DNA from: an uncultured delta proteobacterium
GTDB taxonomy: Bacteria > Desulfobacterota > Binatia > UBA9968
NCBI GenBank assembly: GCA_963816145.1
Contig: CAWFJP010000003.1
Span: forward strand, 768,001-832,000
Direction: 5' to 3'
DNA length: 64,000 bases
A program made the position numbers and the translations under genes. Shown here in pieces: positions 40,829 to 64,000 of the stretch. Under the pieces are notes generated by a model, which saw only the letters and a list, made by a program, of their open reading frames with translations, had not been told where the DNA came from and searched no databases. Position 1 is the stretch's first letter. Every line of letters starts with the position of its first letter.

Positions 40829-41818
40829 CTACTTGATCACCCTATCCGCCCGGAACAACACCGATTGCGGGATGTTAATACCTAACGCCTTCGCCGTCTT
40901 GAGGTTGATGTCAAACTCGAACTTCGTCGGTTGTTCGACCGGCAAGTCGGCGGGTTTTGTGCCTTTCAAGATTTTGTCGACAAAAGTCGCGGCGCGGCGA
41001 AACTGCTGCATATCGTTGGCTGAATAGGACATCATTCCGCCGGCGTCGACCCAAGCGCTGCCTTCGAACATCGAGGGCCATCGATGCTTGATCGCCAGCT
41101 CGGTGATCCGCTTCGAGTTATAGAAGATCGGGCCGTTGGTAATCGCTATGAGCGCTCGCGCGCCCGCCTTGATTCCGGTTCGGAACGCGCCTTCGATGTC
41201 CGGAGTGGATCCGCGCACGGTGAGTGATTGAAGCTCAAGCTTCAGGGCACGCGCTGCGGACTCATAGTCTTTATAACCCGTAGCCGACGCCGACTCGTCC
41301 GCATCCCGAAGAATTCCTACGCGCCCTAACTTCGGAACCGCTTCCTTGAGCAACTCCAGCCGCTTCCCGCTCAGGTCTCGCTGGAGGGTGGCGAGTCCCG
41401 TGATATTCCCGCCCGGGCGCGCCAAGCTCTCGATCAGCCGTTCCGAAACCGGATCGATTTGACTCACCATTATGATAGGAATCGTTTTAGTCGCCTCTTT
41501 TGCCGCGCGGATGGCGGCTACCATCGGTAAGACCATAACGTCGACCTTGAGTCGCACCAGTTCACCGACCAGCCCGGCTATAGGCTCCTGTTTACCCTCC
41601 GCGCCGCGAAACTCAATCACGAAGTCTTTGCCGTCGACATAGCCGAGCGCGGCCAAGCCGCGCCGCAATTCTTCGACGTAAGGTCCGGGTTTGGCGGCGC
41701 TGCCGGTTCCGGAAATATAACCGATACGGGGAATGTTCTTTGCCTGCTGGGCGCTGCTGCGCGAAGCAACCGCTAGTAAGAAAGTTACCAGTAAAGCGAT
41801 AAGTAATTTATGAATCAT
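40829..41818 (-). CDS. ABC_sub_bind family binding protein (array)
   Basis: Signal peptide, IPRIGY, SLARPGGNITG, RAATFVDKILKG, RADRVIK*. Confidence 0.9.
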   Translation of the reverse strand: MIHKLLIALLVTFLLAVASRSSAQQAKNIPRIGYISGTGSAAKPGPYVEELRRGLAALGYVDGKDFVIEFRGAEGKQEPIAGLVGELVRLKVDVMVLPMVAAIRAAKEATKTIPIIMVSQIDPVSERLIESLARPGGNITGLATLQRDLSGKRLELLKEAVPKLGRVGILRDADESASATGYKDYESAARALKLELQSLTVRGSTPDIEGAFRTGIKAGARALIAITNGPIFYNSKRITELAIKHRWPSMFEGSAWVDAGGMMSYSANDMQQFRRAATFVDKILKGTKPADLPVEQPTKFEFDINLKTAKALGINIPQSVLFRADRVIK

Positions 41819-41850
41819 TAAGCCCTTCTTACTGTTGCCTATTGCCTTCT

Positions 41851-42832
41851 TCAGCGGATTACTCGATCCGCTCGTGCTAACACGTTGGGCGGCACGGTCA
41901 AGCCAATCTGCTTGGCGGCTTTCAGATTGACGGTGAATTCGAATTTCTTCGGCTGCTCTACGGGAAGATCAGCGGGCTTGGCACCTTTGAGAATCTTGTC
42001 GACATAAGTCGCGGCGCGGCGGAAAAGTTCGGGATAGTTGGTGCCGTAAGTCATTAAACCACCGGCCTCGACATACTCAGGTCGGGCGTACGCCGCCGGC
42101 AAGCGGAGCTTGGCGGCAAGATCGACAACTTGTTGACGTTTGAGATTGAGGATCGGATTGCCCAGCACCATGAGTGCGTCGGCGCGCCCCTTGGCGGCGG
42201 CGCGAAGAACCGGTTCGATATCCTTGGCATCTTGAACATCCAGATAACGCAAATAAATTTCTTATGCGCCGGCTGCCAGCACAGTCTCTCGCAGAGGCTT
42301 GCGCATCCCCGGGATTGGTCGAATTACCAATCACGGCGACACGCGAGAGTTTGGGCTTGATTTCCTTCAGCAGCTCCAGTTGTTTGCCGCTCATTTCCGG
42401 TGAAAGAGCCGAAAGACCCGTAATGTTGCCTCCAGGTTTCGCCAAGCTAGCGACGAAGCCGCTGCCGACCGGATCGGTATCTTGGGCCATAATGATCGGT
42501 ATCGTCGTCGTCGCCTCCCTCAAAGTGCGCGTTATCGTCGGCCCGGCCGAGACAATAAGATCGACTTTCAGACGCACCAGCTCGACAGCGATCTCGCTGC
42601 GCCGCTCGGGCTTCAAGTCTGCGGAGCGCCACTCGATTATAATGTTCTTACCGTCGACGTAACCGAGCTCGCGCAGACCCTGGCGGAATCCGTCGACGCG
42701 CGCCGCGATTGACGTCACCGGTGAGTCGGACTCAAAGCCAATTCGCGGAACTTTCGCCGGCTGCTGCGCGCGGGCGGAAACAGTTGGCAGCAACAAAGCT
42801 GTCAGCAACCAAACAAATATTTTTCTTTTCAT
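41851..42832 (-). pseudogene. ABC_sub_bind family binding protein with frameshift and stop
   Basis: +1 base near 42295 (GDAQA|LRETVLAAGA) and in-frame TAA near 42263. Confidence 0.8.
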
Positions 42833-42894
42833 TTTTTGTCTCCCGTAGTTTGCCCGCGCTTTGCTCTTCCTACTGACTTCTCACTTTTAACTTT

Positions 42895-43869
42895 TCACCG
42901 AATTACTTTGTCCGCCCGCGCCAGCACATTCGGCGGAATCGTCAAGTCGATCTGCTTAGCCGCTTTTAGATTGACGATGAACTCGAACTTCTTTGGCTGT
43001 TCGACGGGAAGGTCGGCGGGCTTGGTACCTTTCAAAATCTTGTCTACGTACGCCGCGGCGCGGCGGTACAAGTCGTCAAAGCTGACGCCGTAACTCGCCA
43101 GCCCTCCTGCTTCGACAAATGCTGCAAAGGGGTAGATCACCGGGAGCCGACTCTTTGCCGCGGTGTCGACAACTTGTTGTCGCTGTGAGTTGAGGACCGG
43201 TGACAGTAATGCGAGCACGGCTTCAGCCCGTCCCTTAATTGCGCTACGAAATGCGCTGTCAACATCCTTGGGGCTCTGTACGTCGATATAGCGATGCGTC
43301 ACTGCCAACGCGCTGGCGGCGATTTCTGCCTCCTTCCGCATTTGCGCCTGCCCTGGAATATTCGCAGTACCGAGGATCGCCACCGCCGAGATTTTTGGCG
43401 CGATCTCTTTGAGCAGTTCCAGTTGTTTGCCGCTGATCTCCGGGGCGTAGGTTGCCAGTCCGGTAATGTTGCCGCCGGGTCGCGCCAAACTGGCGACAAA
43501 TCCTGTCGCCACAGGATCGGTATCCTGTGCCATCACGATGGGGATCGTCGTCGTTGCGTCCTTGGAGGCTCTGGTCGCCCCCGGACCTCCAGTGACAATG
43601 ACGTCGACCTTGAGCCGCACGAGCTCGGCCGCGAGCACGGGGAAGCGATCGAGTTTGTCCTCGGCATAGCGATACTCGATGAGGATGTTTTTCCCCTCGA
43701 CATAACCAAGCTCGCGCAGCCCCTGGCGCAGCGCTTCGATGCGTGTGGATACGGCCGTAGGATCTGAACCCAGGAATCCGATGCGCGGTATCTTCGCCGG
43801 CAGCTGCGCGGACGCGCTAAGCGCCAAGAGCAAAGCGCTAAGCGTAAGAAGGATGACATTGCTTCTCAT
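42895..43869 (-). CDS. ABC_sub_bind family binding protein (array), MRSNVILLTLSALLLALS leader
   Basis: Family motifs; ends VLARADKVIR*. Confidence 0.9.
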   Translation of the reverse strand: MRSNVILLTLSALLLALSASAQLPAKIPRIGFLGSDPTAVSTRIEALRQGLRELGYVEGKNILIEYRYAEDKLDRFPVLAAELVRLKVDVIVTGGPGATRASKDATTTIPIVMAQDTDPVATGFVASLARPGGNITGLATYAPEISGKQLELLKEIAPKISAVAILGTANIPGQAQMRKEAEIAASALAVTHRYIDVQSPKDVDSAFRSAIKGRAEAVLALLSPVLNSQRQQVVDTAAKSRLPVIYPFAAFVEAGGLASYGVSFDDLYRRAAAYVDKILKGTKPADLPVEQPKKFEFIVNLKAAKQIDLTIPPNVLARADKVIR

Positions 43870-44125: not shown

Positions 44126-44146
44126 TTACTTTGATGAGGATAATTG

Positions 44147-44452
44147 ATGCCAGCCGTCAAAAAACAATATGAAGTGGTCAGCGTTTCGTTGCCCCGCGAA
44201 TTGGTGCAGCGCGCCAACGCGGTGATTCCGAAAGCGCGCCGCAGCAAGGTCATCACCAGCATGCTGACCGCCTTCCTCGATTCGGTTGCCCGCAAACAAT
44301 TGGAGCGTGACTACGCCGATTATTATGCCGGCCGCTCCGGCCGCGATATCGACGAGGAAAAAGAGCAGCTTGCCGAGTGGCGATTGAGCGACGCCGAGGC
44401 CTGGAGCATCCTTGAAAAGGAGGAGTCGCGTGGTCGCGGTGCGGCGCGGTGA
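44147..44452 (+). CDS. Ribbon-helix-helix-type antitoxin
   Basis: VVSVSLPRELV...RSKVI, acidic C-terminus; overlaps the toxin gene. Confidence 0.75.
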   Translation: MPAVKKQYEVVSVSLPRELVQRANAVIPKARRSKVITSMLTAFLDSVARKQLERDYADYYAGRSGRDIDEEKEQLAEWRLSDAEAWSILEKEESRGRGAAR

Positions 44453-44774
44453 TGTCGTGCTGGTCAATCTCGATCCAACCATCGGCGTCGAGATCAAGAA
44501 AACCCGGCCCGCCATCGTATTGTCCAACGACGCAATCAATCAATACAGCCAACTGGCGGTGATCGTGCCGTTGACCAAGAACATCGCCCGGCTCTCGCCC
44601 AGTCACACGCTCATCGCCAAAGGAACCGCGCGCCTCACTTTTGCATCGAAAGTCGTCACCGAGCAGATCAAAGCCGTCGACAAGCAACGCATCGTCAAGC
44701 GGCTGGGAAGCTTGCCGGCAGCCCTGCTCGCACAAGTCGAGCGCGCCGTCAAAAATACTCTGGCGTTGCCGTAA
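44430..44774 (+). CDS. mazF: PemK/MazF family toxin (endoribonuclease)
   Basis: RRGDVVLVNLDPTIGVEIKKTRPAIVLSND, VPLT, EQIKAVDKQR; RBS AGGAGG. Confidence 0.92.
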   Translation: MVAVRRGDVVLVNLDPTIGVEIKKTRPAIVLSNDAINQYSQLAVIVPLTKNIARLSPSHTLIAKGTARLTFASKVVTEQIKAVDKQRIVKRLGSLPAALLAQVERAVKNTLALP

Positions 44775-44815: not shown

Positions 44816-45790
44816 TCATCGAATCACCCGATCCGCCCGCGCCAACACGTTCGGCGGCACCGTCAAGCCGATCTGCTTTGCGGTCTTGAGGTTGACGAAC
44901 AACTCGATCTTATCGACGCCTTCCACCGGCAGATCTTTGGGTTTAACACCGTTGAGAATGCGCTGCACATACTTCGCCGAGAGCCGCCCGACTTCGTGAA
45001 AGCTGACGCTGTAACTCGAAAAGCCGCCGCTTATGACAATACTTTGCCGTGGGAAACTTGTCGGCAGCCGCTGGCGATTTGCAATATCGATAATGAGCCT
45101 CGATTGATTGTCCACTTCCGGGTCCGCCACGGCGAAAAAAGCATCGGCATCCCCGGCCTTGAGGGCGTGAATTGCTGCCAGGAGTTCTTCAGTCGAACTG
45201 TAGTGGCGTTCGATCAACCGGAGGCCCAGCTGCGCTGCCGCCTCGCGCGCGGCCTTGGACGACTCGATAGCGACGGTCGTGCGCGGATTGTACAATGTAA
45301 CCACTCGCCGGAGCTTGGGGACGAGCTCTTTTAACAGCTCCAACCGCTTCCCGGTCAGATCAGCGTCGCGGTAGTAAACCCCGGTAAGCCGGCCTCCCGG
45401 CGCAGCAAAGCTATCGACCAAGCCGAGAGCGACGGGATCGGTACCGGCACAGAAAACCAGTGGGGTATTTGCCGTCGCTCGCCTTGCGGCGATCGTACTG
45501 CCGGTCGAACTGGCATAGATGAGATCGACATTGTCTTGCTCAAACTTCTTCGCCGCCGCTTGCGCCAGCTTTGCATCACCCTGCCAATCTTGCACTGCCA
45601 GCACAAACTGTTTGCCTTCTTCAAGACCGAGCGGCTTGAGACCGCTTTTCAGACCATCAATGATCTCATACCATGCATCGCCGGGAACCAGCGCGCCGAT
45701 TTTGAACACTTTTGCCGGCTGGGCTGCGCTGATCGATGCAGTTGCCAGGAGTAAAACCGCCGCCCACAAACCAAAAAAGCTTTTTCTCAT
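44816..45790 (-). CDS. ABC_sub_bind family binding protein (array; divergent member)
   Basis: GLEEGKQF, DPVALGLVDSFAAPGG, NLKTAKQIGLTVPPNVLARADRVIR*. Confidence 0.9.
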   Translation of the reverse strand: MRKSFFGLWAAVLLLATASISAAQPAKVFKIGALVPGDAWYEIIDGLKSGLKPLGLEEGKQFVLAVQDWQGDAKLAQAAAKKFEQDNVDLIYASSTGSTIAARRATANTPLVFCAGTDPVALGLVDSFAAPGGRLTGVYYRDADLTGKRLELLKELVPKLRRVVTLYNPRTTVAIESSKAAREAAAQLGLRLIERHYSSTEELLAAIHALKAGDADAFFAVADPEVDNQSRLIIDIANRQRLPTSFPRQSIVISGGFSSYSVSFHEVGRLSAKYVQRILNGVKPKDLPVEGVDKIELFVNLKTAKQIGLTVPPNVLARADRVIR

Positions 45791-45846: not shown

Positions 45847-46923
45847 CTACTTAATCACCCGATCCGCCCGCGCCAGCACGTTCGGCGGTACCGGCAGGCC
45901 GATTTGCTTGGCTGCTTGCAAATTGACGATGAACTCAAATTTAATCGGCTGCTCCACTGGTAAGTCGGCGGGTGTTCTGCCTTTGAGAATTTTGTCCACA
46001 TAGACGGCCGCGCGCCTCGACAAGTCCGTGAGGCTCGCCGCATAGCTCATAAGTCCACCGGCATCGACAAATTCTGCGCTGTTGTAGATCGCCGGGAGCC
46101 GGCTCTTTGCCGCGAGTTCGACGATCTCGGTGCGCTGAGCAGTGGCTAGGCCGCCCGCCAATAAAATAAGGACTGCGTTAGCCCGCCCCTTGCTAGCAGC
46201 TCGGAATGCAATCTCAATATCCTTGGGACTTAGTATGTCTAGGTATTGAACCTTCACTCCGAACGCCCCTGCGGCAAGTTCCACTTCTTTTAACGATTGT
46301 GGGTTGGACGGTTCGGTCGAATTCCCCAGGACGGCCACGCGGGAGAACTTAGGAACGGTCTCCTTTAGAACCTCCAGTCGTTTTCCACTAAGCTCCGGTG
46401 CGAGCGACGACAATCCAGTGATATTTCCGCCAGGCCGTGCAAGGTTAGCGACGAACCCGCTGCCTACTGGATCGCCTTCATTGGTCATGACAATGGGAAT
46501 CGTCGAAGTTGCCTGCTTAATAAGAAGACGGGTTACTGTCGGACCAGCCGAGACGAGGATGTCGACCTTGAGCCGCACTAGGTCGGCCGCAAGTTCACTC
46601 AGGCGATCGGTTTTTCCCTCTGCAAAGCGCCGCTCGATGGCAACGTTTTTCCCTTCGACATAGCCAAGCTCACGGAGCCCCTGCAGGAATGCCTCGATGC
46701 GGCCTGCGTAAGCCGCAGCGCTAGTCCCGCCTAGGTATCCTATCCGCGGGATTTTCGCCGGCTGCTGGGCCTGAGTGGGGGAGCCGGGAGCAAGGAGCAG
46801 GGAGCAAAGAGCAAGAAAGACTGTGGCACATAGGCCACGCGCTAGAAGTAAAGCGTTAAACGAGATTTCCAAGGTTTGTTTCCTCAGTGAGGTTTCCTGT
46901 GTGTTTTCTGGCTCCTTGCCCAA
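45847..46923 (-). CDS. ABC_sub_bind family binding protein (array; start uncertain)
   Basis: Family motifs; the leader LALCSLLLAPGSP is encoded by a TGCTCCY heptamer arm. Confidence 0.88.
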   Translation of the reverse strand: MGKEPENTQETSLRKQTLEISFNALLLARGLCATVFLALCSLLLAPGSPTQAQQPAKIPRIGYLGGTSAAAYAGRIEAFLQGLRELGYVEGKNVAIERRFAEGKTDRLSELAADLVRLKVDILVSAGPTVTRLLIKQATSTIPIVMTNEGDPVGSGFVANLARPGGNITGLSSLAPELSGKRLEVLKETVPKFSRVAVLGNSTEPSNPQSLKEVELAAGAFGVKVQYLDILSPKDIEIAFRAASKGRANAVLILLAGGLATAQRTEIVELAAKSRLPAIYNSAEFVDAGGLMSYAASLTDLSRRAAVYVDKILKGRTPADLPVEQPIKFEFIVNLQAAKQIGLPVPPNVLARADRVIK

Positions 46924-46939: not shown

Positions 46940-47929
46940 CTATTTTAGGACCCGATTCGCCCGTGACAGAAACTCCGGCGAGAGCGATAGTCCGATCTGT
47001 TTTGCCGCCTTCAAGTTGATGACAAACTCAAACTTCGAGGCCTGCTGCACCGGCAAGTCAGCTGGTTTGGCGCCCCTCAAAATCTTGTCGACGTAAACCG
47101 CCGCGCGCCGGTAGAGGTCATTGAAGTCCGCACCGTAAGACATGAGCCCGCCGGCTTCGACAAATTCATCCTGTGGGTAGATCGCCGGTAAACGGTGATT
47201 ACCGGCAAGCTCGACGATGCGCTTTCTTTCGGCCACAAAGCGGTTAGTAACGTACGTCATGATCCCGCCCGCCTGTTTCTGCTTTGCAATTTGAAAAGCG
47301 CTTTCTACACCTTTGGAGTCGGGTTTAGTTTCGATCTCTTCCAATTTCAGTTTCAGTGCCGAAGCCGCGGCCCTGAGTTCTTTCATTTGAAGATTCCCTG
47401 CCTCGCCGCTTCCTGGCGGCCGCAGAAGTCCGACACGGGCGAGCTTGGGGACCGCGTCCTTGAGTATCTCCAGCCTCTTGGTATTCAGCTCCACTGCTAG
47501 ACTTGACAGCCCCGTGACGTTGCCTCCGGGCCGGGCCAGACTGGCAACCATCCCTTCACCTACGGCGTCCGCGGGGTTGGTCATGACGATCGGGATGGTA
47601 GTTGTGGCTTCCTTCGCCGCCAACACCGCAGCTCCGGCTGTGACCAAGATCAGATCAACCTTCAGCCGGACCAGTTCCGCGGCGAGGCCAGTCAGCCGCT
47701 CTCGTTTTTGATCGCCGTAGCGGTATTCGAAGGTGAAACTTTTTCCCTCGATCCATCCAAGCCTGCCCATCTCCTGGCGGAACGCATCCAGGTAGTCAGC
47801 GTTACCGGAAGCCGTGCTTGCGGTGAGGAATCCTATTCGAACAATTTTCCCTACCTGCTGCGCATTGGCGGCGGGGGTGGAAACAAGAATGACGCTTGCC
47901 AGGAACCAGTTGAGAATCGATTTCATCAT
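46940..47929 (-). CDS. ABC_sub_bind family binding protein (array)
   Basis: Family motifs; ends RANRVLK*. Confidence 0.9.
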   Translation of the reverse strand: MMKSILNWFLASVILVSTPAANAQQVGKIVRIGFLTASTASGNADYLDAFRQEMGRLGWIEGKSFTFEYRYGDQKRERLTGLAAELVRLKVDLILVTAGAAVLAAKEATTTIPIVMTNPADAVGEGMVASLARPGGNVTGLSSLAVELNTKRLEILKDAVPKLARVGLLRPPGSGEAGNLQMKELRAAASALKLKLEEIETKPDSKGVESAFQIAKQKQAGGIMTYVTNRFVAERKRIVELAGNHRLPAIYPQDEFVEAGGLMSYGADFNDLYRRAAVYVDKILRGAKPADLPVQQASKFEFVINLKAAKQIGLSLSPEFLSRANRVLK

Positions 47930-47975: not shown

Positions 47976-48968
47976 TCATCGAATAACCTTGTCGGCCCGA
48001 TACAGCAGCGACTGCGGAATCGTCACGCCGATCTGCTTGGCGGTCTTGAGATTGAATATCAGCTCGAACTTTGTCGGCTGTTCGACTGGCAGGTCGCCGG
48101 GTTTAGCACCTTTTAGGATTCTGTCGACGTAGTATGCGACGCGGCGGTAGCTGTCCGCCTGGTCCGCTCCGTAGTACATAAGCCCGCCTTCAGTTACATA
48201 TTCGCTTCTGCCGTATACTGACGGTAACTGGCTATTTAGCGCAAAGCCGACGATCCGTTTCTGATTGGAATTCAGCAGCGCGCCCGTGGAAACGTAGAGT
48301 CCATCCGGGCGCTGCTTGCCGATCGCGGCAAAAACCTTCTCGAAATCATCCTGGCCTCGCACCTGCCAGGTTTGGATGGTCATCTTCTGCGCACGTGCCA
48401 CGGCTGGCAGAACCTCTTTAAGCTCCGATCCGGCAGACAGAGTGCTTTCGTCGTGGAGAACCGCGACGTGGGTAAGTTTGGGGACGGCTTCTTTGAACAG
48501 CTCCAACCGCTTCCCGCCTAGTTCAAGGACGAGGCTTGTCAGACCGGTGACAATACCGCCCGGACGAGCGAGGCTTTTAACGAAGCCTGCTTTGACAGGA
48601 TCGACACCACCGCCGGTCATGATGATGGGAATCGTCTTGGTCGCATTGATGGCGGCCCTGAGCAGGACGTCGCCGCCTGCTACTAAGATGATATCGATAT
48701 TGAGACGCGCCAACTCCGCCGCAAGTTTAGGGAACCGGTCGCTCTTCCCCTCCGCATATCGGTACTCAATGGCGATGTTCTGTCCTTCGATGTAGCCCAG
48801 CTCGCGCAGACCCAGCCGCACTCCTTCCGCACGACTGGAGTCGTTAGCTGGATCCCGCGCCGATAGATAACCTATCCGCGGGATTTTCCTCGGCTGCTGC
48901 GCAATGGCGACCATGGCATTTATCAGCAAGACAGTAACCAGTCCCCAGAAGATAGTTTTCTTTGTCAT
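47976..48968 (-). CDS. ABC_sub_bind family binding protein (array)
   Basis: MTKKTIFWG leader; family motifs; similar to 36020-37012 (ADSYRRVAYYVDRILKG). Confidence 0.9.
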   Translation of the reverse strand: MTKKTIFWGLVTVLLINAMVAIAQQPRKIPRIGYLSARDPANDSSRAEGVRLGLRELGYIEGQNIAIEYRYAEGKSDRFPKLAAELARLNIDIILVAGGDVLLRAAINATKTIPIIMTGGGVDPVKAGFVKSLARPGGIVTGLTSLVLELGGKRLELFKEAVPKLTHVAVLHDESTLSAGSELKEVLPAVARAQKMTIQTWQVRGQDDFEKVFAAIGKQRPDGLYVSTGALLNSNQKRIVGFALNSQLPSVYGRSEYVTEGGLMYYGADQADSYRRVAYYVDRILKGAKPGDLPVEQPTKFELIFNLKTAKQIGVTIPQSLLYRADKVIR

Positions 48969-54228: not shown

Positions 54229-54270
54229 GGTTTTCTCCCCTACTATCGCCTGTTGCCTAATGCCTATCGC

Positions 54271-55254: not shown

Positions 55255-55296
55255 GGTTTCCTCTCTTACTATTGCCTGTTGCCTAATGCCTCTTGC

Positions 55297-56326: not shown

Positions 56327-57313
56327 TCATCGAATCACCCGATCCGCCCGAGCCAGCACATTGGGCGGGATCGTCAAACCGATTTGCTTAGCGGTCTTCA
56401 GATTTACCACGAACTCAAACTTGGTGGGTTGTTCCACCGGCAGTTCAGCGGGCTTGGCGCCCTTGAGAATTTTGTCAACATAGATCGCCGCGCGCCGCAT
56501 ATTGTTATTGAAATCCGGTCCCCAGGACAGGAGTCCGCCCGCCTCGACGTAGGTTCGGTCCGGATAAGAGCTCGGCAAGCGATTTTTGAGCGCCAGAGCG
56601 GCGATCTGCGGCCGCTGATCCGCACTGACCCCGTCGCTGAACAAGAACATACCGCCCACATGCTGCGCGGCCATGGTTTTGAATGCGTTCTCAAAGTCGC
56701 CGGTCTCTCGGAATGGGACGGGGATGAGCGTCACTTTCAAATGGCGCGCCGGCCCTTCCAAGTTCTTCAGGTAGAGTTGGTGAGCGGCATTAGCGCTGTT
56801 AAAGAGCACCGCGACCCGCGACAGCTTGCTCAACGACTCTTTCATCAACTCCAGACGCTTGCCGAAATTTTCCTCGCCGGTGTCCATGCTCAATCCGGTG
56901 ATGTTGCCACCTGGACGCGCCAGGCTGGCGACCAAGCCCGTGCCGATCGGGTCGTTGCCGGCGGTCATGACAATCGGGATAGTTGACGTCGCTTGCTTCG
57001 CTGCCACAATCCCCGGGTTAACTCCGGTGACAATCACATCGACGTTGAGCCGAACGAGATCCGCAGCCAGGCCAGGAAGGCTTTCAGCTTTTCCGTCGGC
57101 GAATCGGTATTCGATTGAGAGGTTCTTGCCCTCTTCATAACCATGTTCGCGCATCCCCTGCTTGAACATATCGAGACGGCTCTGACCCTGCTCCAGCCGT
57201 GTCGGCCACAGATAGCCGATGCGGTAGATTTTGGCCGGTTGCTGCGCGTCGGCGAAGGAAATAGTTGTCAGAATTACAGTTGCCAGTACCCAAACGGATA
57301 ATTTCTTGATCAT
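56327..57313 (-). CDS. ABC_sub_bind family binding protein (array)
   Basis: Family motifs. Confidence 0.9.
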   Translation of the reverse strand: MIKKLSVWVLATVILTTISFADAQQPAKIYRIGYLWPTRLEQGQSRLDMFKQGMREHGYEEGKNLSIEYRFADGKAESLPGLAADLVRLNVDVIVTGVNPGIVAAKQATSTIPIVMTAGNDPIGTGLVASLARPGGNITGLSMDTGEENFGKRLELMKESLSKLSRVAVLFNSANAAHQLYLKNLEGPARHLKVTLIPVPFRETGDFENAFKTMAAQHVGGMFLFSDGVSADQRPQIAALALKNRLPSSYPDRTYVEAGGLLSWGPDFNNNMRRAAIYVDKILKGAKPAELPVEQPTKFEFVVNLKTAKQIGLTIPPNVLARADRVIR

Positions 57314-57363: not shown

Positions 57364-58344
57364 TCAGCGAATCACCCGATCCGCCCGCGCCAATACATTC
57401 GGCGGAATCGTCAGGCCGATCTGCTTGGCGGCTTTGAGATTTATGACGAAGTCGAACTTCATCGGTTGTTCCACCGGCAGATCCGCGGGTTTGCGGCCTT
57501 TCAAAATTTTATCGACGTAGGTCGCCGCGCGGTGCCAGTGACCGAGGCTGTCCGGCGCATAACTCATGAGGCCTCCCGCATCGACCCATGCAGACGATAT
57601 ATACATCGCTGGCAACTTTTTTTGGGTTGCCAAGTCGATGATCCGTGCTCGGAACGTACCGAACCCTGGAATCGGGGTGGTAGTTAGAGCCTGAGCGCCC
57701 GCGCTTTTTGCTGTATCGAAGGCGCTCTCAAGATCGTCAACGCCTTTGACACCCATCGAATGAAGCCGTAGTCCCAATGATTTGGCCACGGCCTCGGCCT
57801 CGTTGAAACGCCGGCCAGAACCGCTCGCGTTGCTCCACAGAAACGCCACTCGCGTAACTTTAGGAAATGCTTCTTTGAGTAGCTCGAGACGCTTGCCGTT
57901 CAACTCTGGGGCGAGCAGCACCAACCCCGTGACGTTCCCGCCGGGCTTAGCCAAGCTGGACACGATCCCGCCACCGACTGGATCGGAAGCCGTCGCGAAT
58001 ACAATGGGGATTGTTTTGGTCGCATTTTGGGCGGCCCGAATAGCGGGGCCGGAGGTGGTGACAATGACATCGACTTTGCGACGGACCAAATCGTCCGCAA
58101 GTCCAGGGAGAGCATCAAGTACTCCTTGTGCATACCGGTACTCGATAACGATGTTCTTTCCTTCAACGTAGCCCAACTCGCGCAGCCCTTGCCGGAAAGA
58201 ATCAAAATCCCTCGCGTAGCCGCTCTGCATCCCAGGAACCAACAAACCGATCAGCGGCGTTTTCGCAGGCTGCTGTGCCGCGGCGGAACGGCTAAGCGCC
58301 AAGAGCAAAGAGCAAAGGGTAAGGAAGATTAGTTTTATCTTCAT
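57364..58344 (-). CDS. ABC_sub_bind family binding protein (array)
   Basis: MKIKLIFLTLCSLLLALS leader; family motifs. Confidence 0.9.
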   Translation of the reverse strand: MKIKLIFLTLCSLLLALSRSAAAQQPAKTPLIGLLVPGMQSGYARDFDSFRQGLRELGYVEGKNIVIEYRYAQGVLDALPGLADDLVRRKVDVIVTTSGPAIRAAQNATKTIPIVFATASDPVGGGIVSSLAKPGGNVTGLVLLAPELNGKRLELLKEAFPKVTRVAFLWSNASGSGRRFNEAEAVAKSLGLRLHSMGVKGVDDLESAFDTAKSAGAQALTTTPIPGFGTFRARIIDLATQKKLPAMYISSAWVDAGGLMSYAPDSLGHWHRAATYVDKILKGRKPADLPVEQPMKFDFVINLKAAKQIGLTIPPNVLARADRVIR

Positions 58345-58384
58345 GGCGTATCCATTAGCTCTCTCCACTCGACACTCGTCCCTC

Positions 58385-59368
58385 TCACTTGATGACTTTG
58401 TCGGCCCGATACAGCACCGACTGCGGGATCGTGATACCGATCTGCTTAGCCGCCTGGAGATTAATGACCAGCTCGAATTTCATCGGCCGCTCCACTGGAA
58501 GGTCAGCGGGCTGGCGCCCCTTTAGGATCTTATCCACATACGTCGCGGCCCGCTTGTGCATATCAGCGTAATTGGGACCATAGGACATCAAGCCGCCGGC
58601 CTCGACCAGTTCCAGGTACGCGTACACACCCGGTAAGTGGTGTTTGACGGCAAACTCCATGATGCGCGTGCGGTTATGCAGAAAGACACGATCCGCCAAC
58701 ACCAGCAGCGCCCTCGGTCGCTGTTTGAGGATCTGCCCGAACGCATGATCGAACTGCTCCTGCGCTGGCACGTCGAGGTACAGTACTTTCATGTGCAACG
58801 CCGCGGCGGCGAGCTCCACCTGTTTCTTTTCGATCACATGAAACGCATTTTTCGAATTCCACATCACGGCGATGTGGGAGAGCTTGGGAATTACTTCCTT
58901 AAGTAACTCGATGCGTTTACCCTCCAGTTCCGGTGAGATCGAAGTCAAACCGGTGATATTCCCGCCGGGCCGGGCCAAGGAAGCGACGATGCCGTTGCCA
59001 ACGGGATCGCCGACGGCGACCATGACGAGAGGGATCGACGTCTTGGCGTTCTGGTACGCCTGGGTGGCGGGTGTGCCGGCAGTAACCACCACATCGACCT
59101 TGAGAGCGATCAACTCGTCGATGAGCGCGGGAAAGCGCTCATAGTTTCCTTCGGCCCAACGATACTCGATCAAGATATTTTTCCCCTCGACGTAGCCGAG
59201 GGCGTGCAACCCCTCGCGAAAAGCGCCGATCAGATTTGCCTCAAGGGCAGCAGTGGAGTTTCCCAAGAAGCCTACCCGAGGAATTCTTTCAATGTGTTGC
59301 GCCTCGGCAAATGAACCAGTAGCCAGAAGGGCAGTAATCAGTAAGCAGACAAGCGTCTTTTGGGTCAT
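58385..59368 (-). CDS. ABC_sub_bind family binding protein (array)
   Basis: RBS AGGAGG; family motifs. Confidence 0.9.
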   Translation of the reverse strand: MTQKTLVCLLITALLATGSFAEAQHIERIPRVGFLGNSTAALEANLIGAFREGLHALGYVEGKNILIEYRWAEGNYERFPALIDELIALKVDVVVTAGTPATQAYQNAKTSIPLVMVAVGDPVGNGIVASLARPGGNITGLTSISPELEGKRIELLKEVIPKLSHIAVMWNSKNAFHVIEKKQVELAAAALHMKVLYLDVPAQEQFDHAFGQILKQRPRALLVLADRVFLHNRTRIMEFAVKHHLPGVYAYLELVEAGGLMSYGPNYADMHKRAATYVDKILKGRQPADLPVERPMKFELVINLQAAKQIGITIPQSVLYRADKVIK

Positions 59369-59425: not shown

Positions 59426-60690
59426 TCATCTAATGACTCTATCTGCCCGCGCCAGCACAGTCGGCGGGATCGTCAGACCGATTTGCTTGGCGGTTCTGAG
59501 ATTGACGACCAATTCAAACTTGACGGCTGTTGGACAGGCAGTTCGCCCGGTTTTGTTCCCTTCAAGACCTTGTCCACATAACCCGCAGCGCGCCGGAACA
59601 TGTCGGGAAAACTCGGGCCGTAGGACATCAGCCCACCCGCGCCCGTTACCCAATCGGATTGATTGTTGACTGTGGGTAGCCGATGTTTCACGGCGAGATC
59701 CGACAAACGATTTCTGTGGGCATAGAGAAACGCCGACGGCAATAGGATCATAGCGTCAGCGCGCTGTTTGGCTGCCACTTCGAACGCAGCGGCGAAATCG
59801 GCTGGGCCGCCGACTTTCAGTACCTGCAGGTTGAGTTTTAACGAACGGGCCGCATCCTCGGTAGATTTCAACTGGCCGATGTCATTTGCCGGGTCCACAA
59901 GAGCGGCGACGCGGCTCATTCGCGGCAAGATTTCTTTTAACAGCTCCATCCATTTGCCTGGCAGCTCATCGGCTTGACTGGCAAATCCAGTTAGGTTGCC
60001 TCCGGGCCGCGCGAGACTTTCCACAAGACCAGAGTCCACAGGGTTGACGACAGCGGGCATAACGATCGGGATCGAGCTGGTCGCCTTCTTCGCCGCCAAG
60101 ATCGGGCCCGGACCTGCGGCGACGATGACATCGACGGAAAGCCGAACGAGATCCGCGACCAAATCTGGCAGGCGTTCGTTTTTTCCCTCGGCCCAACGGT
60201 ACTCGAGAGTCATGACCTCCGGCAAAGCCGGAGGCTTGGCGTTTGCTGGCCCCTCAAAGGGGCCCTTTCGCAAACGGCAAAGATAAGATTTTGCGAACAT
60301 CGATTCTGAAATGTCATTTCCTCTGGCTATTGCCGATGACTTCAAAGCGCCTTCGTTGCGAAATGACTTGTTCACGCTATTCGCTGTTTTACCACCTACG
60401 CAAAAGTCAAACTTTGGGTGTCCCCCGGCAAAGCCGGGGGTTTACCAACGATTAATTATGTTTTTCCCCTGGACATATCCGAGATCTTGCAACCCCTGCA
60501 CGAACGCATCCACCAAGGGATCGGGAGGCGATCCTGTGCGCAAAATACCGACGCGCGCAATCTTCGCCGGCTGTGCCCACACAGCCCCATATATTGCAAA
60601 TACGATAATAAAGCTGACAACCCACGCCCTTTTGAGTTTTATACTATCGGACGAAGAATTTAGGAATCGACCTAAACGCGGAGTATTCAT
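59426..60690 (-). pseudogene. ABC_sub_bind family binding protein interrupted by an IS200-like miniature element, plus a -1 frameshift near 59522
   Basis: GYVQGKNII | 246-bp insert | LEYRWAEGK; PVQQP|KFELVVNL. Confidence 0.85.
60208..60453 (-). mobile_element. Non-autonomous IS200/IS605-type miniature element (PATE-like), 246 bp
   Basis: Subterminal hairpins GTAAACCCCCGGCTTTGCCGGGGG and GCCTCCGGCTTTGCCGGAGG plus GGCCCCTTTGAGGGGCC; no TSD; exact removal restores the reading frame. Confidence 0.8.
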
Positions 60691-60755: not shown

Positions 60756-61736
60756 TTACCGAATCACCCGATCCGCTCTGACCAACACGTTCGGCGGGAT
60801 CGTCAGGCCGATTTGTTTGGCTGCTTTTAAGTTGACGACAAACTCGAACTTCATCGGCTGCTCCACCGGAAGCTCGGCGGGCTTGGCGCCCTTGAGAATT
60901 TTGTCCACGTAAACTGCGAGACGGCGATGCAGATCAGCCAGGTCGGCCCCATAGGACATGAGACCTCCAACGTCGACAAACTCGCGGTCGTCGTACATGG
61001 CGGGGAGTTTGCTCTTTGCCGCAAGCTCGGCGATCCGCTTTCGATTGTTGACGATCAGCGGGTTGCGCAGCACGATGAGAGCGTGGAATTGTGCCGTCGT
61101 TGCCGATTTAAATGCACCTGCGAAATCCGTAACTGCTCGCACCTCCACCGAGTGGAGTTGTAATCCCAATGCGCGGCTTGCCACCTCAACCTCCTTCCAT
61201 TTCACCGCTGCGTCAGGGGCGGTAGGGTTTCGCAGCACGGCTACGACACGAGCCTTGGGAACCGCCTCTTTAAGAATTTCCAGCCGTTTACCAATCAACT
61301 CCGTCGATATCGAGGTCACCCCGGTAATGTTTCCACCCGGCCGCGCCAAGCTGGCGACCAGTCCCGTCGCAACCGGATCGTCCGTGCTGCGCATAACGAT
61401 CGGGATCGTGGTCGTGGCGTCCTTCGCCGCATGCGCCGTCGGCGGACTCATGGCGACGATGACATCGACCTTTAGTCCGACAAGCTCCGCGGCGAGCGCT
61501 GGGAGCCGATCGAGTTTCCCTTCCGCATAGCGGTATTCAAGCGCAACGTTCTTACCCTCGACATATCCTAGTGCGGCCAAACCCTGGCGGAACGCCTTGA
61601 TGTCGGCCGACTCGTCAGGAGATAACGCCATCAGCAAACCCAAGCGCGGCATCTTCACCAGCGGCTGCGCCTTGGCGACAGTGCCAGTCGCCAGAATGAT
61701 TGTTGTCAGTAACCAGAAAACGATTTTTCTCTTCAC
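60756..61736 (-). CDS. ABC_sub_bind family binding protein (array)
   Basis: Family motifs; GTG start. Confidence 0.9.
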   Translation of the reverse strand: MKRKIVFWLLTTIILATGTVAKAQPLVKMPRLGLLMALSPDESADIKAFRQGLAALGYVEGKNVALEYRYAEGKLDRLPALAAELVGLKVDVIVAMSPPTAHAAKDATTTIPIVMRSTDDPVATGLVASLARPGGNITGVTSISTELIGKRLEILKEAVPKARVVAVLRNPTAPDAAVKWKEVEVASRALGLQLHSVEVRAVTDFAGAFKSATTAQFHALIVLRNPLIVNNRKRIAELAAKSKLPAMYDDREFVDVGGLMSYGADLADLHRRLAVYVDKILKGAKPAELPVEQPMKFEFVVNLKAAKQIGLTIPPNVLVRADRVIR

Positions 61737-61780: not shown

Positions 61781-62045
61781 TTACCGGATGACCCGATCCG
61801 CTCTGACCAACACATTCGGCGGGATCGTCAGGCCGATTTGTTTGGCGGCCTTGAGGTTGATAATCAATCTTCGTCGGATGTTCGACGTAACAATGACTTT
61901 GGAATGCTTCCTGAAACGCCTTGAACCGCGGCCAGAAAGCTGGCCCGGGCACCAACACACCGATGCACGGAATTTTCGGTATCGGCTGCTGCGCTCAGAC
62001 CGGCAATGCATGCGCCAGAACAAGGACCGCTGCTAACCGAATAAG
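61781..62045 (-). pseudogene. Internally deleted relic of an ABC_sub_bind gene
   Basis: LAAVLVLAHALPV*AQQPIPKIPCIGVLVPG...KAFQEAFQSHCYVE is joined directly to HPTKI../INLKAAKQIGLTIPPNVLVRADRVIR*. Confidence 0.8.
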
Positions 62046-62321
62046 CCTTACCCGCCCCATGAATAGCACTCCTCCAATTTACGAATGGAAATGACGAAGA
62101 GAATACTCGTACCCATTCTTGACGCTTCTAACGCACAAACAATGCCACCAGTTGTACATGCATAATTAACCCTAGTGAGCTGAATTAACAAAGAAAATCT
62201 TATCGTCGATCGGCGCCGCCTAGAAACTCGATCGGGACCAAGAGTAGTCGATTTGCTACTCGGTGTAGCAAAAATGCGACACCAGACGGGGCTGCGGAAA
62301 GTTGGGATTAAGAAATTATTT

Positions 62322-62480
62322 TCTCGCAAAGGCGCCAAGGCGCAAAGCTTAGGGGGATAAGTGCAAATTCGCTTCAGTCGATAAGCTCGGAATAAACTTC
62401 GTGAGATATTATTTTTGAGCGCCGCGCATTCGTTCCAGATCACGGGCCCTGCCCGTCGCTTTGCGCCTTGGCACCTTTGA
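62322..62480. repeat. Degenerate CGCAAAG/CTTTGCG inverted-repeat element
   Basis: tctcgcaaaggcgccaaggcgcaaag ... gcccgtcgctttgcgccttggcacctttg. Confidence 0.65.
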
Positions 62481-62563
62481 TGAAAACTGTCGTTAGCTAG
62501 ATCGAAGCTGCTTTGAGCATGGTTCCCCTCTTTAACTGTTGCCTGCTGCCTATTGCCTATTGC

Positions 62564-63544
62564 CTACCGAATGATCCGATTCGCCCGCGCCAGCACCTCC
62601 GGCGGTATCGTTAGATTGAGTGCTTTGGCCACCTTTAAATTGACGACAAACTCAAACTTGCTCGATTGCTCGACGGGGATATCGGCAGGTTTGGCGCCCT
62701 TGAGGATCTTGTCGACCATCGCCGCGACGCGTTTGAAAGGCTCAACCTCGTCGGCGCCGTAGGACATCAAGCCGCCTTGCTCGACGAAATCTTCGCGATA
62801 GTAGATCGCCGGCAAGTGAAATTTGGCCGCCAGCGCGATGATCTGCTTCCGGTCAGTGGATTGAGACCGGCGGTGTCGTGTTATAGCGAGAGCCACGCTG
62901 CCCATCTTGACGGCATCTTTGAACCGATTCTCATAGCTGTCTGTAGCGCTGATTTTCATGGAGTAGAGCTGCAGCCCCAGCTGGCGCGCAGCGAGTTCGC
63001 TTTCTGTCCACTGCGGATCGATTCTTCCAGTTGCTGGATACCACAAGACGGCCACACGAGGGAGTTTGGGGATTGACTCCTTGAGCAACTCCAATCGCTT
63101 ACCTGCTAGGACTTCCGCCATACTGAAAAAACCTGTGACGTTCCCTCCGGGGCGCGCAAGGCTGGCCACCAACCCCCGAGCAACCGGATCCGCCGGCGAA
63201 TCGGTGAACACGATGGGAATCGTCTGGGTAGCCTTTTTTGCGGCCAAGCCGTCATTCGGCCCGCCCGCGATGATGACATCGACCTTGAGCCGAACCAGCT
63301 CATCGGCCAAGGCAGCGAGGCGCTCGGGTCGTTCTTCCGCATAGCGATTCTCGAAGGTTATGTTCTTGCCCTCGACGTAGCCGAGCTCGCGCAGTTCTCG
63401 GCTTATCGCGTCATGGCTAAAGGTCGAGCTCGATAATCCTCCGCTTAATCGCCCGACGCGATAAACTTTCCCCGCCGGCTGCGCCTGCGCCGAACAAACG
63501 CTCGCCACACACACCGCCGCCAGTAAACAGCCCGTAAGTTTCAT
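62564..63544 (-). CDS. ABC_sub_bind family binding protein (array)
   Basis: MKLTGCLLAAV leader; family motifs. Confidence 0.9.
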   Translation of the reverse strand: MKLTGCLLAAVCVASVCSAQAQPAGKVYRVGRLSGGLSSSTFSHDAISRELRELGYVEGKNITFENRYAEERPERLAALADELVRLKVDVIIAGGPNDGLAAKKATQTIPIVFTDSPADPVARGLVASLARPGGNVTGFFSMAEVLAGKRLELLKESIPKLPRVAVLWYPATGRIDPQWTESELAARQLGLQLYSMKISATDSYENRFKDAVKMGSVALAITRHRRSQSTDRKQIIALAAKFHLPAIYYREDFVEQGGLMSYGADEVEPFKRVAAMVDKILKGAKPADIPVEQSSKFEFVVNLKVAKALNLTIPPEVLARANRIIR

Positions 63545-63600
63545 GCTTCTGTGCTCCGCTCCAGGAATCTCACTCACGCCTCGCGCCTCATGCCTCATGC

Positions 63601-64000
63601 CTATCGAATCACCCGATCCGCCCGCGCCAGCATCTCCGGCGGGATCGTCAAGCCGATTTGCTTCGCAGCTTTCAGATTGATGACGAACTCGAACTTCGTC
63701 GGCTGCTCTACGGGGAGATCGGCAGGCCTGGCACCTTTCAGGATTTTGTCCACGTACGTGGCGGCGCGCTGGAAAATATCGGTAAAGCTGGCGCCGTAAT
63801 ACATGAGGCCACCGGCGTCAATATACTCTGGCTGCGCGTACACCCCGGGCATACGGTTCTTGACCGCGAGTTCGGCAATCTGTGTGCGGCGAAGATTGAG
63901 CACAGGACTACCGAGCACGACGATCGCGTCAGCACGTCCCTTGCTAGCGGCTGCGAATGCCATCTCAATGTTTTTTGGCTCGTGTATGTCCAGGAACTGA
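63601..64000 (-). CDS. ABC_sub_bind family binding protein, 5' part beyond the window
   Basis: C-terminal third, nearly identical in part to 54271-55254. Confidence 0.88.
   Translation of the reverse strand, partial: QFLDIHEPKNIEMAFAAASKGRADAIVVLGSPVLNLRRTQIAELAVKNRMPGVYAQPEYIDAGGLMYYGASFTDIFQRAATYVDKILKGARPADLPVEQPTKFEFVINLKAAKQIGLTIPPEMLARADRVIR

Follow-up and report, generated by a model that had tools for sequence, protein, structure and literature searches.

The window, a stretch of 64,000 nucleotides analysed as a whole, comes from the genome of a soil or wetland bacterium of an uncultured Binatia group. Its right-hand part is occupied by an array of 22 head-to-tail units of the PF04392 (ABC_sub_bind) family, all on the minus strand (window coordinates 40829-64672). 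Searching all six frames with an HMM of the array's 17 intact copies returned 26 pieces at C3:808832-832672 (corresponding to 40832-64672), which were resolved into the 22 units, very close to the count of about 22 same-strand paralogs given by an earlier sequence-only reading. Seventeen units are intact, four are frameshifted (u02, u11, u18 and u22) and one is internally deleted (u20). The array does continue past the window edge, as that reading had claimed, but for 672 nt only, and is followed there by a leader region and a split Hydantoinase_B gene. The GC content of the array (0.54-0.57) shows no compositional anomaly relative to the genome (0.56). The units, the sequences inserted among them and the downstream flank are as follows.

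38153..39932, minus strand: Hydantoinase_B gene spread over two frames, flanking the array downstream
40829..41818, minus strand: u01, intact; last unit along transcription; Pfam 144.6 bits, HMM 1-327
41851..42880, minus strand: u02, frameshift near 42294; two frames, HMM 1-181 and 194-327
42895..43869, minus strand: u03, intact; leader and signal peptide match u08 and u11 at 89-90% identity
43990..44045, minus strand: gene-end relic; a u12-like unit's final 11 codons with stop and heptamer run, 89% identical to 53222-53277
44144..44452, plus strand: presumptive antitoxin ORF, upstream of and overlapping mazF; assigned by position only
44412..44774, plus strand (opposite to the array): MazF/PemK-type toxin gene, PF02452, E 5e-29
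44816..45790, minus strand: u04, intact; most divergent unit, 31-39% amino acid identity to the others
45847..46923, minus strand: u05, intact; open frame from a TTG start
46940..47929, minus strand: u06, intact
47976..49001, minus strand: u07, intact; listed ATG lies within a heptamer run, likely start is a downstream ATG (MTKK...)
49011..49994, minus strand: u08, intact
50050..51066, minus strand: u09, intact
51081..52064, minus strand: u10, intact
52113..53241, minus strand: u11, frameshift near the 3' end; last ~16 codons out of frame
53245..54228, minus strand: u12, intact
54271..55254, minus strand: u13, intact; only recent duplicate (partner u22)
55297..56295, minus strand: u14, intact
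56327..57313, minus strand: u15, intact
57364..58368, minus strand: u16, intact
58385..59368, minus strand: u17, intact; tree sister is a copy from genome G017
59426..60690 (end approximate), minus strand: u18, three frames; broken by a 1-nt difference at 59524 and a 246-bp insertion
60208..60453, strand not applicable: MITE-like insertion of 246 bp with hairpin ends, inside u18
60756..61736, minus strand: u19, intact
61781..62479, minus strand: u20, internal deletion; HMM 295-327 only
62564..63598, minus strand: u21, intact
63601..64672 (window edge at 64000), minus strand: u22, first unit of the array; frameshift near the 5' end

By inspection, all 17 intact units have their own start codon and signal peptide, and most of them an RBS. 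The frameshifted u11 still scores 167 Pfam bits (profile 17-278; HMM 1-311), with its 3' motif lying in another frame at 52116-52154. u20 consists of a copy of the array leader joined to the first ~60 and last ~37 codons of a u22-like gene, with 80-82% identity to 64488-65003 and 74% to 63602-63712. The sequences previously described as an orphan gene end and an empty unit belong to u20; the supposedly empty stretch (62033-62563) repeats the leader of the array itself at 80-82% identity.

The toxin-antitoxin module seen earlier was confirmed for its MazF/PemK toxin, whose matches to the NCBIfam ChpB and MazF models fall below their cut-offs; the antitoxin remains presumptive, since its ORF matched no Pfam or NCBIfam family. 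Together, the two ORFs stand in place of almost one whole unit, one border of the segment directly following the u04 stop and the other lying 33 nt ahead of the next gene's stop. At its ends, the MITE-like element matches the sequences flanking a gene for an IS200-like Y1 transposase at another site in the genome. The Hydantoinase_B gene downstream of the array has a paralog on the upstream flank (L001:1020-2793; 74% protein identity). In another genome of the set (G003), the best match to u04 also adjoins a hydantoinase B gene.

PF04392 was assigned above the Pfam cut-off in all 12 array-type ORFs tested, and the nearest solved structures were 3LKV (E 4e-31), 3LFT and 6HNI. The array units are Sec-secreted periplasmic solute-binding proteins of PF04392 (COG2984, TrpX-like type I binding-protein fold), a family for which L-Trp, L-Tyr and L-Phe are listed as ligands in solved structures (PMC10443332, Table 1). 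They share the Pfam family and a conserved C-terminal segment with the TrpX-type ABC binding proteins (NCBIfam NF041285; 3LFT, 3LKV, 6HNI), but score far below the TrpX equivalog cut-off (133-154 versus 390 bits), have no adjacent permease or ATPase and vary from unit to unit in their loops. In the alignment the scaffold motifs are fixed while the loop following IG(F/Y)L is hypervariable, as the sequence-only reading had noticed. No permease or ATPase was found within the array, again in agreement with that reading, and no ABC ATPase or permease was found near the PF04392 genes at any of the 23 loci of the genome that carry them. A diversified repertoire of secreted binding proteins without a transporter of its own is thus borne out.

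The units are old, diverged paralogs. Amino acid identity among the 17 intact units averages 49% (range 31-63%), adjacent units (also 49% on average) are no closer than non-adjacent ones, and only one pair exceeds 70% overall nucleotide identity. We built a tree of 53 full-length copies, comprising the 17 from the array, 21 from elsewhere in the host genome (G000) and 15 from a relative (G017:C6), in which the array members are not monophyletic but scattered among the dispersed and G017 copies. The host genome holds 73 PF04392 matches in 23 loci; it also holds 69 TctC matches against 11 for TctA. All 18 genomes sampled from the genus contained the PF04392 family (a maximum of 218 first-look candidates in one genome); none of the seven sampled from the sister family did. 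Six other genomes of the genus contain a contiguous match to the u07-u06 pair, a u07-like/u06-like two-gene block is repeated in G018:C17 and G004:C2, and comparable arrays occur in several other genomes. The array is hence one locus of a genus-wide, lineage-specific expansion of PF04392.

Superimposed on this divergence are tracts of high identity. Among 60-nt windows at least 85% identical, 21 of 210 unit pairs were found at the 3' end, against 0-4 in windows of the gene body. At the other end of the gene, the leader and signal peptide shared by u03, u08 and u11 contrast with 63-67% identity over the remaining gene (binomial P 5e-10 to 3e-8), while u13 and u22 are 85% identical at the nucleotide level from just past the signal peptide to ~20 nt after the stop. 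These tracts show homologous exchange ending in conserved blocks. The converted segments proposed earlier therefore stand, with some of their end points in the conserved 3' end.

That 3' end had been described as near-invariant in most genes. A 39-nt motif, allowing up to three mismatches, was found at eight unit ends and in none of 100 shuffles, and a degenerate 24-nt version at 18 unit ends; the end is conserved, but "near-invariant in most" was somewhat overstated. It encodes the conserved C-terminal segment of the PF04392 family, which aligns even with 3LKV and 3LFT (Vibrio/Streptococcus structures), and the same gene ending occurs equally in dispersed single copies and in a relative. Orphan 3' ends starting at HMM positions 280-295 were detected in four to five places, a recurrence that counts against purely ordinary duplication, although such detection favors this best-conserved part of the gene. 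Protein conservation does not explain the synonymous identity of the region, which reaches 0.61 over the final 10 alignment columns, where codon usage predicts 0.31, and therefore indicates some DNA- or RNA-level constraint or homogenisation at the very 3' end. This excess is not array-specific: in the last 8 codons, synonymous identity was 0.65 between array units, 0.60 between array and other copies within the host genome and 0.49 between the host and G017.

Between units, the earlier reading had described a heptamer run, an RBS and the next ATG. With a strict regular expression, such runs were found at eight junctions, the remaining junctions having a degenerate run or none:

54244..54271, minus strand: example of a run of 4 x 7 nt behind a stop codon, then GTA(A/G)G, RBS and ATG
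45820-45847, 48984-49011, 51049-51076, 52088-52108, 55270-55297, 62537-62564 and 63574-63601: the other strict-pattern runs

Such runs are thus present at these junctions, but a role as a cassette boundary is not supported, since 83 of the 97 runs in the genome are not adjacent to a PF04392 gene. Just over half (55/97) lie at -40..+10 nt relative to the stop codon of an ORF with 100 codons or more, 16 have a TAG overlapping the run, and 13 head-to-head inverted doublets have spacers of 20-35 nt. The heptamer run is a genome-wide intergenic REP/REPIN-like repeat, single arms of which are carried by the array spacers. Our comparison with REP/REPIN elements, which covers the run and not the array units, relies on the descriptions in PMC3337134 and PMC3116915. 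The likeness lies in a short extragenic repeat of ~100 copies, often just downstream of genes, with inverted doublets and patchy abundance among relatives; unlike the elements described there, the heptamer arm is a direct run of four heptamers without a palindrome, most copies are single arms, and no run lies within 1.5 kb of any of the seven Y1 transposase genes.

The conserved 3' end and the REP-like singlet might together form an RNA-level element acting, for example, on processing, stability or translation and so adjusting the expression of every cistron of a long polycistronic transcript, in an array that would still have arisen by ordinary duplication. The nucleotide excess in the last 8-10 codons of array and dispersed copies alike would fit such an element, as would the runs directly after the stops of many unrelated genes, their frequent distance of 15-30 nt from the next start and the lack of enrichment of terminator-like sites in the array (15, versus 24.7 +/- 5.4 in shuffles). 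However, the boundaries form no stable structure, a good run is missing from about half of the junctions, and the heptamer is rare or not found in some members of the genus with large PF04392 arrays (three in G017, none in G004), which leaves this explanation unlikely.

The sequence-only reading had proposed an integron-like, expandable cassette array, in which single units are inserted and excised site-specifically at a boundary made of the 3' end and the heptamer. Same-strand, uniform and tightly packed units with a toxin-antitoxin module inside are indeed shared with integron arrays, and the clustering of high-identity tracts and of synonymous excess at the 3' end would suit a process directed to that boundary. 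The near-exact replacement of one unit by the mazF segment, with borders near gene 3' ends, is also predicted by a boundary-directed process. Unlike in integrons, though, the contig has no integrase and no attC-like folded sites, every unit is an old paralog of one family, and the boundary motif lies in coding sequence whose conservation is due to the protein, a motif that dispersed copies and PDB homologs also carry. A search beyond the window placed none of the genome's 11 tyrosine recombinase (PF00589) matches on contig C3, and a scan of flanking genes showed no recombinase. As single-stranded DNA, ten boundaries folded no better than shuffles (z -2.36 to +1.70, mean -0.2, one of ten below -2). 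The heptamer run is genome-wide, and other exchange ends at the signal-peptide junction, away from the proposed boundary. Finally, no well-supported, long-sided joint fitting excision of a single unit was found in the contigs of four metagenome runs. A dedicated cassette system is therefore very improbable.

The mosaic tracts (the leader and signal peptide of u03/u08/u11, the converted-looking 3' ends and the body of u13/u22) could also reflect a gene-conversion system of the kind known from antigenic-variation loci, with one or a few expressed units rewritten from the others as a donor library. We consider this highly unlikely: every intact unit carries its own start and signal peptide, overall identity above 70% is confined to one pair, and the product is no surface antigen but a periplasmic binding protein. 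Moreover, putative orthologs in two species preserve the variable loops: 45 columns with <10% identity among paralogs retain 37% between seven reciprocal-best pairs with G017, a comparison weakened by many-to-many orthology.

That repeat misassembly produced the length and order of the array has a negligible probability, in spite of short-read contigs breaking at the conserved gene ends and the mostly fragmented frames of the G018 array, because the units are too diverged for collapse or mis-joining, five junctions (u06|u07, u07|u08, u14|u15, u16|u17 and u17|u18) are bridged in the same order by contigs from independent metagenome runs, and other genomes of the genus have comparable arrays. 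Several frameshifts in the window do differ from the metagenome contigs, which have one base fewer at 42294 in u02 (runs X4 and X6) and an extra T after 59524 in u18 (4/4 runs), and indel errors in the consensus are therefore possible. The MITE-like insertion is also skipped in contigs of X2, X4 and X6.

We thus favor, with a probability of roughly 0.8, a long tandem array of old paralogs that grew by ordinary duplication and homologous exchange as part of the genus-wide expansion. Growth would have proceeded by tandem and block duplication through unequal crossing-over, and remodelling by gene conversion between units, with ends in two conserved blocks, the KIPRIG region immediately behind the signal peptide and the C-terminal segment. 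Decay would have followed from frameshifts, internal deletion, MITE insertion and the replacement of one unit by the mazF module.

Among known systems, the closest is found in the Bordetella Bug family and Rhodoplanes, where orphan TTT solute-binding proteins have undergone a lineage-specific expansion (PMC5994714, PMC5812351). Rhodoplanes sp. Z2-YC6860 is reported to have 434 TTT binding-protein genes; its longest array comprises nine genes, which mostly share <50% identity, and for five of them the nearest proteins lie outside the array (PMC5994714). As in these accounts, dozens to hundreds of periplasmic binding-protein paralogs per genome far exceed the membrane components, and many of them lie in tandem arrays, whose members are mostly at or below ~50% identity and often closest to copies elsewhere; the surplus of TctC over TctA matches in the host genome is a further likeness. 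The present case differs in its family (PF04392, an ABC-type type I fold, instead of TctC), in its phylum (Binatia), in its 22 units against nine and in that a permease of the expected ABC kind adjoins none of the 23 loci. The TTT expansions have been interpreted as duplication and specialisation for sensing or uptake in complex environments (PMC5994714).

For the present array we infer the function, since no partner transporter or sensor was found for its proteins. The units may be co-transcribed, and their products may bind diverse ligands and share a membrane partner. The array does not look like a rapidly varying library; as the units differ mainly in the loops that line the ligand cleft in this fold, it most likely supplies the bacterium with many binding proteins of different, stable specificities.

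The tandem array is real and represents an unusually large case of a known phenomenon, the expansion of orphan binding proteins. It was delineated with an HMM built on its 17 intact copies and run against the six-frame translation, which returned 26 pieces between window positions 40832 and 64672. These resolve into 22 units, all on the minus strand and numbered by window position (in the direction of transcription, u22 comes first and u01 last): 17 are intact, four are frameshifted (u02, u11, u18 and u22) and one, u20, is internally deleted. All 12 open reading frames (ORFs) tested matched the Pfam family PF04392 (ABC_sub_bind) over most of the profile length, with 136-196 bits against a gathering cut-off of 25.9. 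The sequence-only reading, which had counted about 22 tandem ABC_sub_bind genes, was therefore correct in this respect; it was also right that the array runs past the window edge, but only by 672 nt. The GC content and composition of the array are the same as those of the remaining source genome, G000 (7.82 Mb in 31 contigs, GC 0.56), in which the window occupies C3:768001-832000. Besides the units, the array contains the following features:

43990-44045: relic of a gene end, 11 codons
54244-54271: heptamer run (four 7-nt repeats), example
62537-62564: heptamer run, example
60208-60453: MITE-like insertion of 246 bp with hairpin ends, inside u18

The foreign content among the 22 same-family units consists of a mazF module and this one MITE. 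In type II mazEF toxin-antitoxin systems, the antitoxin gene is expected directly upstream of the toxin gene. Of the toxin-antitoxin module suspected earlier, the toxin was recovered (MazF/PemK domain PF02452, 101 bits against a cut-off of 23.1), but the overlapping ORF upstream of it matches no family.

The array is flanked by genes for hydantoinase B, NMT1 binding proteins, an MBL-fold protein and an AMP-binding enzyme. Two paralogous Hydantoinase_B genes, one on each side and 74% identical at the protein level, are both split into two frames. The splits (in window 38153-39932 and in 1020-2793 of L001, the fetched upstream flank) occur at a similar place, while the homolog in the related genome G003 is a single 566-aa frame; pseudogenisation, a recoding site or indel errors in the consensus could account for them. 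Immediately beyond the downstream end of the array, a small ORF on the plus strand, and so opposite to the units, encodes a retropepsin-like aspartyl protease domain (PF13650; window 40361-40765). At the other end, the array leader (L001:823-1020, equivalent to window 64823-65020) contains a short repeat that recurs on many contigs, in both orientations, as dozens of 35-70-nt matches at 80-95% identity; the leader is also, in part, an inverted repeat of itself.

The array consists of old paralogs. Its 17 intact units are 31-63% identical to one another at the protein level (mean 49%), and adjacent units average 49% as well, not above non-neighbours. The only recent duplicates are u13 and u22, with 85% nucleotide identity. 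In a tree of 53 full-length copies (17 array units, 21 copies at other G000 loci and 15 on contig C6 of the relative G017), the array members are dispersed among the non-array copies, several of them being sister to copies from other loci or from G017. Seven reciprocal-best pairs with G017 came out in reversed order relative to transcription, an order that is given no weight because orthology in the tree is many-to-many.

PF04392 has 73 matches at 23 loci in G000. The family was present in all 18 sampled genomes of the genus, with up to 218 first-look candidates in one of them, and in none of seven from the sister family. The arrays of other genomes contain differing mixes of subfamilies, and a two-gene block resembling u07 and u06 is tandemly repeated in G018 (contig C17) and G004 (contig C2). 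Together, the mixed arrays and the repeated block fit a pattern of birth-and-death evolution, which would proceed by unequal crossing-over. The tallies over relatives (family presence, heptamer counts and the u07/u06 block) include the unpublished genome G005, on which no claim is based alone. We also observed a PF04392 array of about 27 kb in G018 (C17, 177-205 kb; stretches L091-L093), where most units are broken into several frames, owing either to massive decay or to an assembly with many indel errors.

An integron-like cassette array, as the sequence-only reading had proposed, is not supported. Integron cassette arrays possess an adjacent IntI-type tyrosine recombinase, folding attC-like boundary sites and cassettes of unrelated origin and function. 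In contrast, no IntI-type recombinase adjoins the array, whose flanks hold metabolic enzymes and other binding proteins, and none of the 11 genome matches to the tyrosine recombinase family PF00589 is located on contig C3, which carries the array. Single-stranded DNA folding of 10 boundaries gave z-scores between -2.36 and +1.70 (mean -0.2), with one of the ten below -2, so that attC-like folding is absent from these boundaries. Finally, all 22 units belong to one family. Ordinary explanations suffice for the two features that had given the array its cassette-like appearance, the uniform gene ends and the heptamer runs.

The conserved 3' DNA encodes ...NLKAAKQIGLTIPPNVLARADRVIR, a segment with aligned counterparts at the C-termini of two distant homologs of solved structure, 3LKV and 3LFT. 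Copies dispersed singly in G000 have it too, as does G017. The conservation is thus primarily a protein constraint of the family. The gene end is also less uniform than had been described, as the exact 39-mer occurs at 8 unit ends with up to three mismatches, whereas a degenerate 24-mer occurs at 18. At the nucleotide level, the final 10 alignment columns reach a synonymous identity of 0.61, where codon usage predicts 0.31; the corresponding values in the gene body are 0.33-0.49 against 0.27-0.42. Over the last eight codons, synonymous identity is 0.65 between array copies and 0.60 between array copies and other loci, 0.51 within G017 and 0.49 between G000 and G017. The excess thus belongs to the whole family in G000 and not to the array; gene conversion over short tracts within the best-conserved part would fit it, as would a role at the RNA level. 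Whether u04 had been converted at its 3' end towards the consensus of the array was assessed against its orthologs: the G017 one differs there, the G003 one resembles u04.

The heptamer runs, taken earlier for a boundary feature of the array, proved to be genome-wide: a strict pattern identified 97 in G000, of which 14 are near a PF04392 gene, and the reversed-pattern control gave none in any genome. Two variants exist, (GGCAAYA)x4 and (GGCRYGA)x4, and GTAAGA usually comes next. More than half (55 of 97) lie within -40 to +10 nt of the stop codon of an ORF of at least 100 codons, 16 with a TAG overlapping the first GGC. Because every heptamer contains TAG or TGA, a run contains stops in all three frames. 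In the array spacers, single arms stand immediately before the ribosome-binding site (RBS), while 13 head-to-head pairs with a spacing of 20-35 nt were found in the genome (for instance G000:C27:21048-21137 and C31:464429-464512).

REP/REPIN elements are abundant short extragenic repeats that form inverted doublets and flank a RAYT (Y1 transposase) gene. In its arrangement, the heptamer run is a REP/REPIN-like repeat, sharing with these elements its abundance, shortness, extragenic location and inverted doublets. It differs in that none of the seven PF01797 (Y1 transposase) matches has a heptamer run within 1.5 kb. Abundance is high in only part of the genus, with 25 runs in G007, 21 in G008 and 23 in G018 but three in G017 and none found in G004. 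A heptamer-sized insertion polymorphism was observed at 58365 in one metagenome. Between 44001 and 64000, searches with consensus patterns that may not fit this phylum returned 9 promoter-like sites, compared with 10.0 +/- 3.1 in shuffled sequences, and 15 terminator-like sites, compared with 24.7 +/- 5.4, so neither search gave a signal.

Traces of exchange between units are concentrated at the 3' end, where 21 of 210 pairs share a 60-nt window of at least 85% identity, compared with 0-4 in windows of the gene body. The leader and signal peptide of u03, u08 and u11 are 89-90% identical, while the remainder of these units is 63-67% identical (P 5e-10 to 3e-8). The similarity of u13 and u22 spans from just after the signal peptide to about 20 nt past the stop codon, and u20 joins a copy of the array leader to the two ends of a u22-like gene, ~60 codons from its start and ~37 from its end. 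Furthermore, the relic-u03 junction is homologous to the u12-u11 junction, which indicates duplication of a two-unit block. One copy of this block was later replaced for the most part by the mazF segment, whose borders lie directly after the u04 stop and, on the other side, 33 nt short of the lost gene's stop. The end points of exchange, at the 3' end and at the signal-peptide junction, thus fall in conserved blocks, the 3' end being one such block among others. Converted segments had been noted before, with breakpoints clustered at the 3' end/heptamer boundary expected of a cassette array; the segments and their concentration at the 3' end hold, but end points are found elsewhere too.

We compared the covered parts of the window with short-read contigs from four metagenome runs. 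Five unit junctions were bridged by these contigs, all in the order of the window, and no unit-removing joint with good support was found among them. Joints skipping thousands of bases had sides of 20-35 nt at 90% likeness and were therefore treated as cross-matches to paralogs or other organisms. The sole joint with long sides corresponds to the absence of the 246-bp MITE from u18 in three runs, the sides of all other listed joints being at most 35 nt. A copy of the MITE with 92% identity is located at C23:78205-78458, and the MITE ends are matched by the sequences on either side of an IS200-like Y1 transposase gene (C29:53351-53707). Single-base differences between the window and the contigs at 42294 and 59524 fall exactly on the frame-change sites of u02 and u18. 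Neither lies in a homopolymer, and the extra base at 59524 was present in all four runs. This points either to genes that are intact in sibling populations or to consensus indel errors.

By inspection of the alignment, all 17 intact units carry a putative N-terminal export signal of typical form, in which a basic N-terminus and a hydrophobic stretch precede an AxA-like site followed by QQ. A start codon is likewise seen in each of them, and an RBS in most. Differences between units are greatest in the stretch that follows IG(F/Y)L and in further loops behind conserved strands, in line with the diversified loops of the sequence-only reading. However, the 45 columns that are less than 10% identical between paralogs are 37% identical between the putative orthologs of the seven reciprocal-best G017 pairs (overall identity 64% between orthologs vs 46% between paralogs). 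This comparison suggests that the variable columns are maintained subfamily-specific sites, and that the loops may not be hypervariable. The ligands given for solved PF04392 proteins in PMC10443332 are aromatic amino acids. Both units tested against the TrpX equivalog NF041285 scored far below its cut-off of 390 bits (132.8 and 153.5 bits).

ABC_sub_bind proteins have been described as members of a trio with a COG4120 permease (BPD_transp_2) and a COG1101 ATPase (PMC5615194). The lack of a permease or ATPase in the array, already apparent to the sequence-only reading, extends to all 23 PF04392 loci, with the nearest ABC ATPase at least 5.4 kb and the nearest PF02653 (BPD_transp_2) match at least 9.3 kb away. 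PF02653, under which the COG4120 permease presumably falls, has only 10 matches in the genome, accounted for by five LIV-type loci with two permeases and two ATPases each; no cognate permease of the single-gene type was found in this genome of ~45-70 PF04392 copies. A neighbour survey covered 80 ORFs within three ORFs of PF04392 genes, out of 189 non-PF04392 ORFs, at 14 loci and the fetched stretch L002. Among the best 25 of 87, the commonest neighbour families were NMT1 binding proteins (5) and two-component parts (3), with no ABC permease. A further look at ten larger neighbours showed them to be of mixed kinds. A TctA gene is found within 10 kb of three of the 23 loci, and a TctC array has broken PF04392 copies inside it.

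It is conceivable, though in our estimate unlikely (perhaps one chance in five), that the PF04392 proteins of this genus have left the ABC system, and that the repertoire docks on a shared partner of another kind, such as TTT membrane proteins or sensor kinases, or buffers the periplasm. In addition, homologous exchange at the conserved blocks beside the REP-like singlets may recombine leader and signal-peptide modules with ligand-binding bodies, which would turn the array into an evolvable receptor bank.

As a separate observation, at L101:8195-13188 (G000:C11:328-333 kb), two genes come after the most divergent PF04392 copy of G000: the first fuses a cyclic-nucleotide-binding domain to a DASS-type (Na_sulph_symp) transporter, and the second encodes a sigma-54 response regulator.

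Other binding-protein families are also numerous in G000, which has 69 TctC matches vs 11 TctA matches. A tandem TctC run at window 4027-10080 continues upstream to G000:C3:758335, with four genes in the window and about 13 in all by coordinates; it ends in a TctA gene and is interrupted by broken PF04392 copies at window 2026-3900. Several NMT1/THI5-like binding-protein genes flank the array on either side (window 31250-35117 and L001:3063-4049), which makes C3:758-852 kb unusually dense, with four binding-protein families. The TctC excess and the NMT1 genes together indicate that several binding-protein families have been multiplied in the organism.

Among described phenomena, the nearest is the expansion, specific to certain lineages, of orphan TTT binding proteins, documented for Bordetella and Rhodoplanes in PMC5994714. 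Such expansions form tandem arrays whose members are at most ~50% identical, often have their nearest kin outside the array and are accompanied by few membrane partners. PF04392 in G000 shares these traits, with the mean identity of 49%, the interleaving of array and non-array copies in our tree and 73 matches at 23 loci. However, the units described here are PF04392 proteins and not TctC, genes for which occur elsewhere in the window, the host belongs to a different phylum (Binatia), and no ABC membrane component is near any locus. The array also has 22 units, compared with the nine genes of the Rhodoplanes array, which was called remarkable. Text searches of PMC and bioRxiv yielded no description of PF04392 arrays.

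Massive expansion of orphan binding proteins, known from few cases so far, thus extends to a binding-protein family of the ABC type and to a soil phylum that is uncultured, with an array more than twice as long as that of Rhodoplanes. A false lead is also removed, since ordinary explanations are available for the uniform gene ends and the heptamer runs. According to bioRxiv 10.1101/2022.03.11.484050, Binatia abound in soil and sediment, and the degradation of aromatic compounds is ascribed to them. The several dozen binding proteins provide a direct handle on what these bacteria sense or import, and the absence of a permease raises a testable question, namely which membrane partner the orphan binding proteins use.
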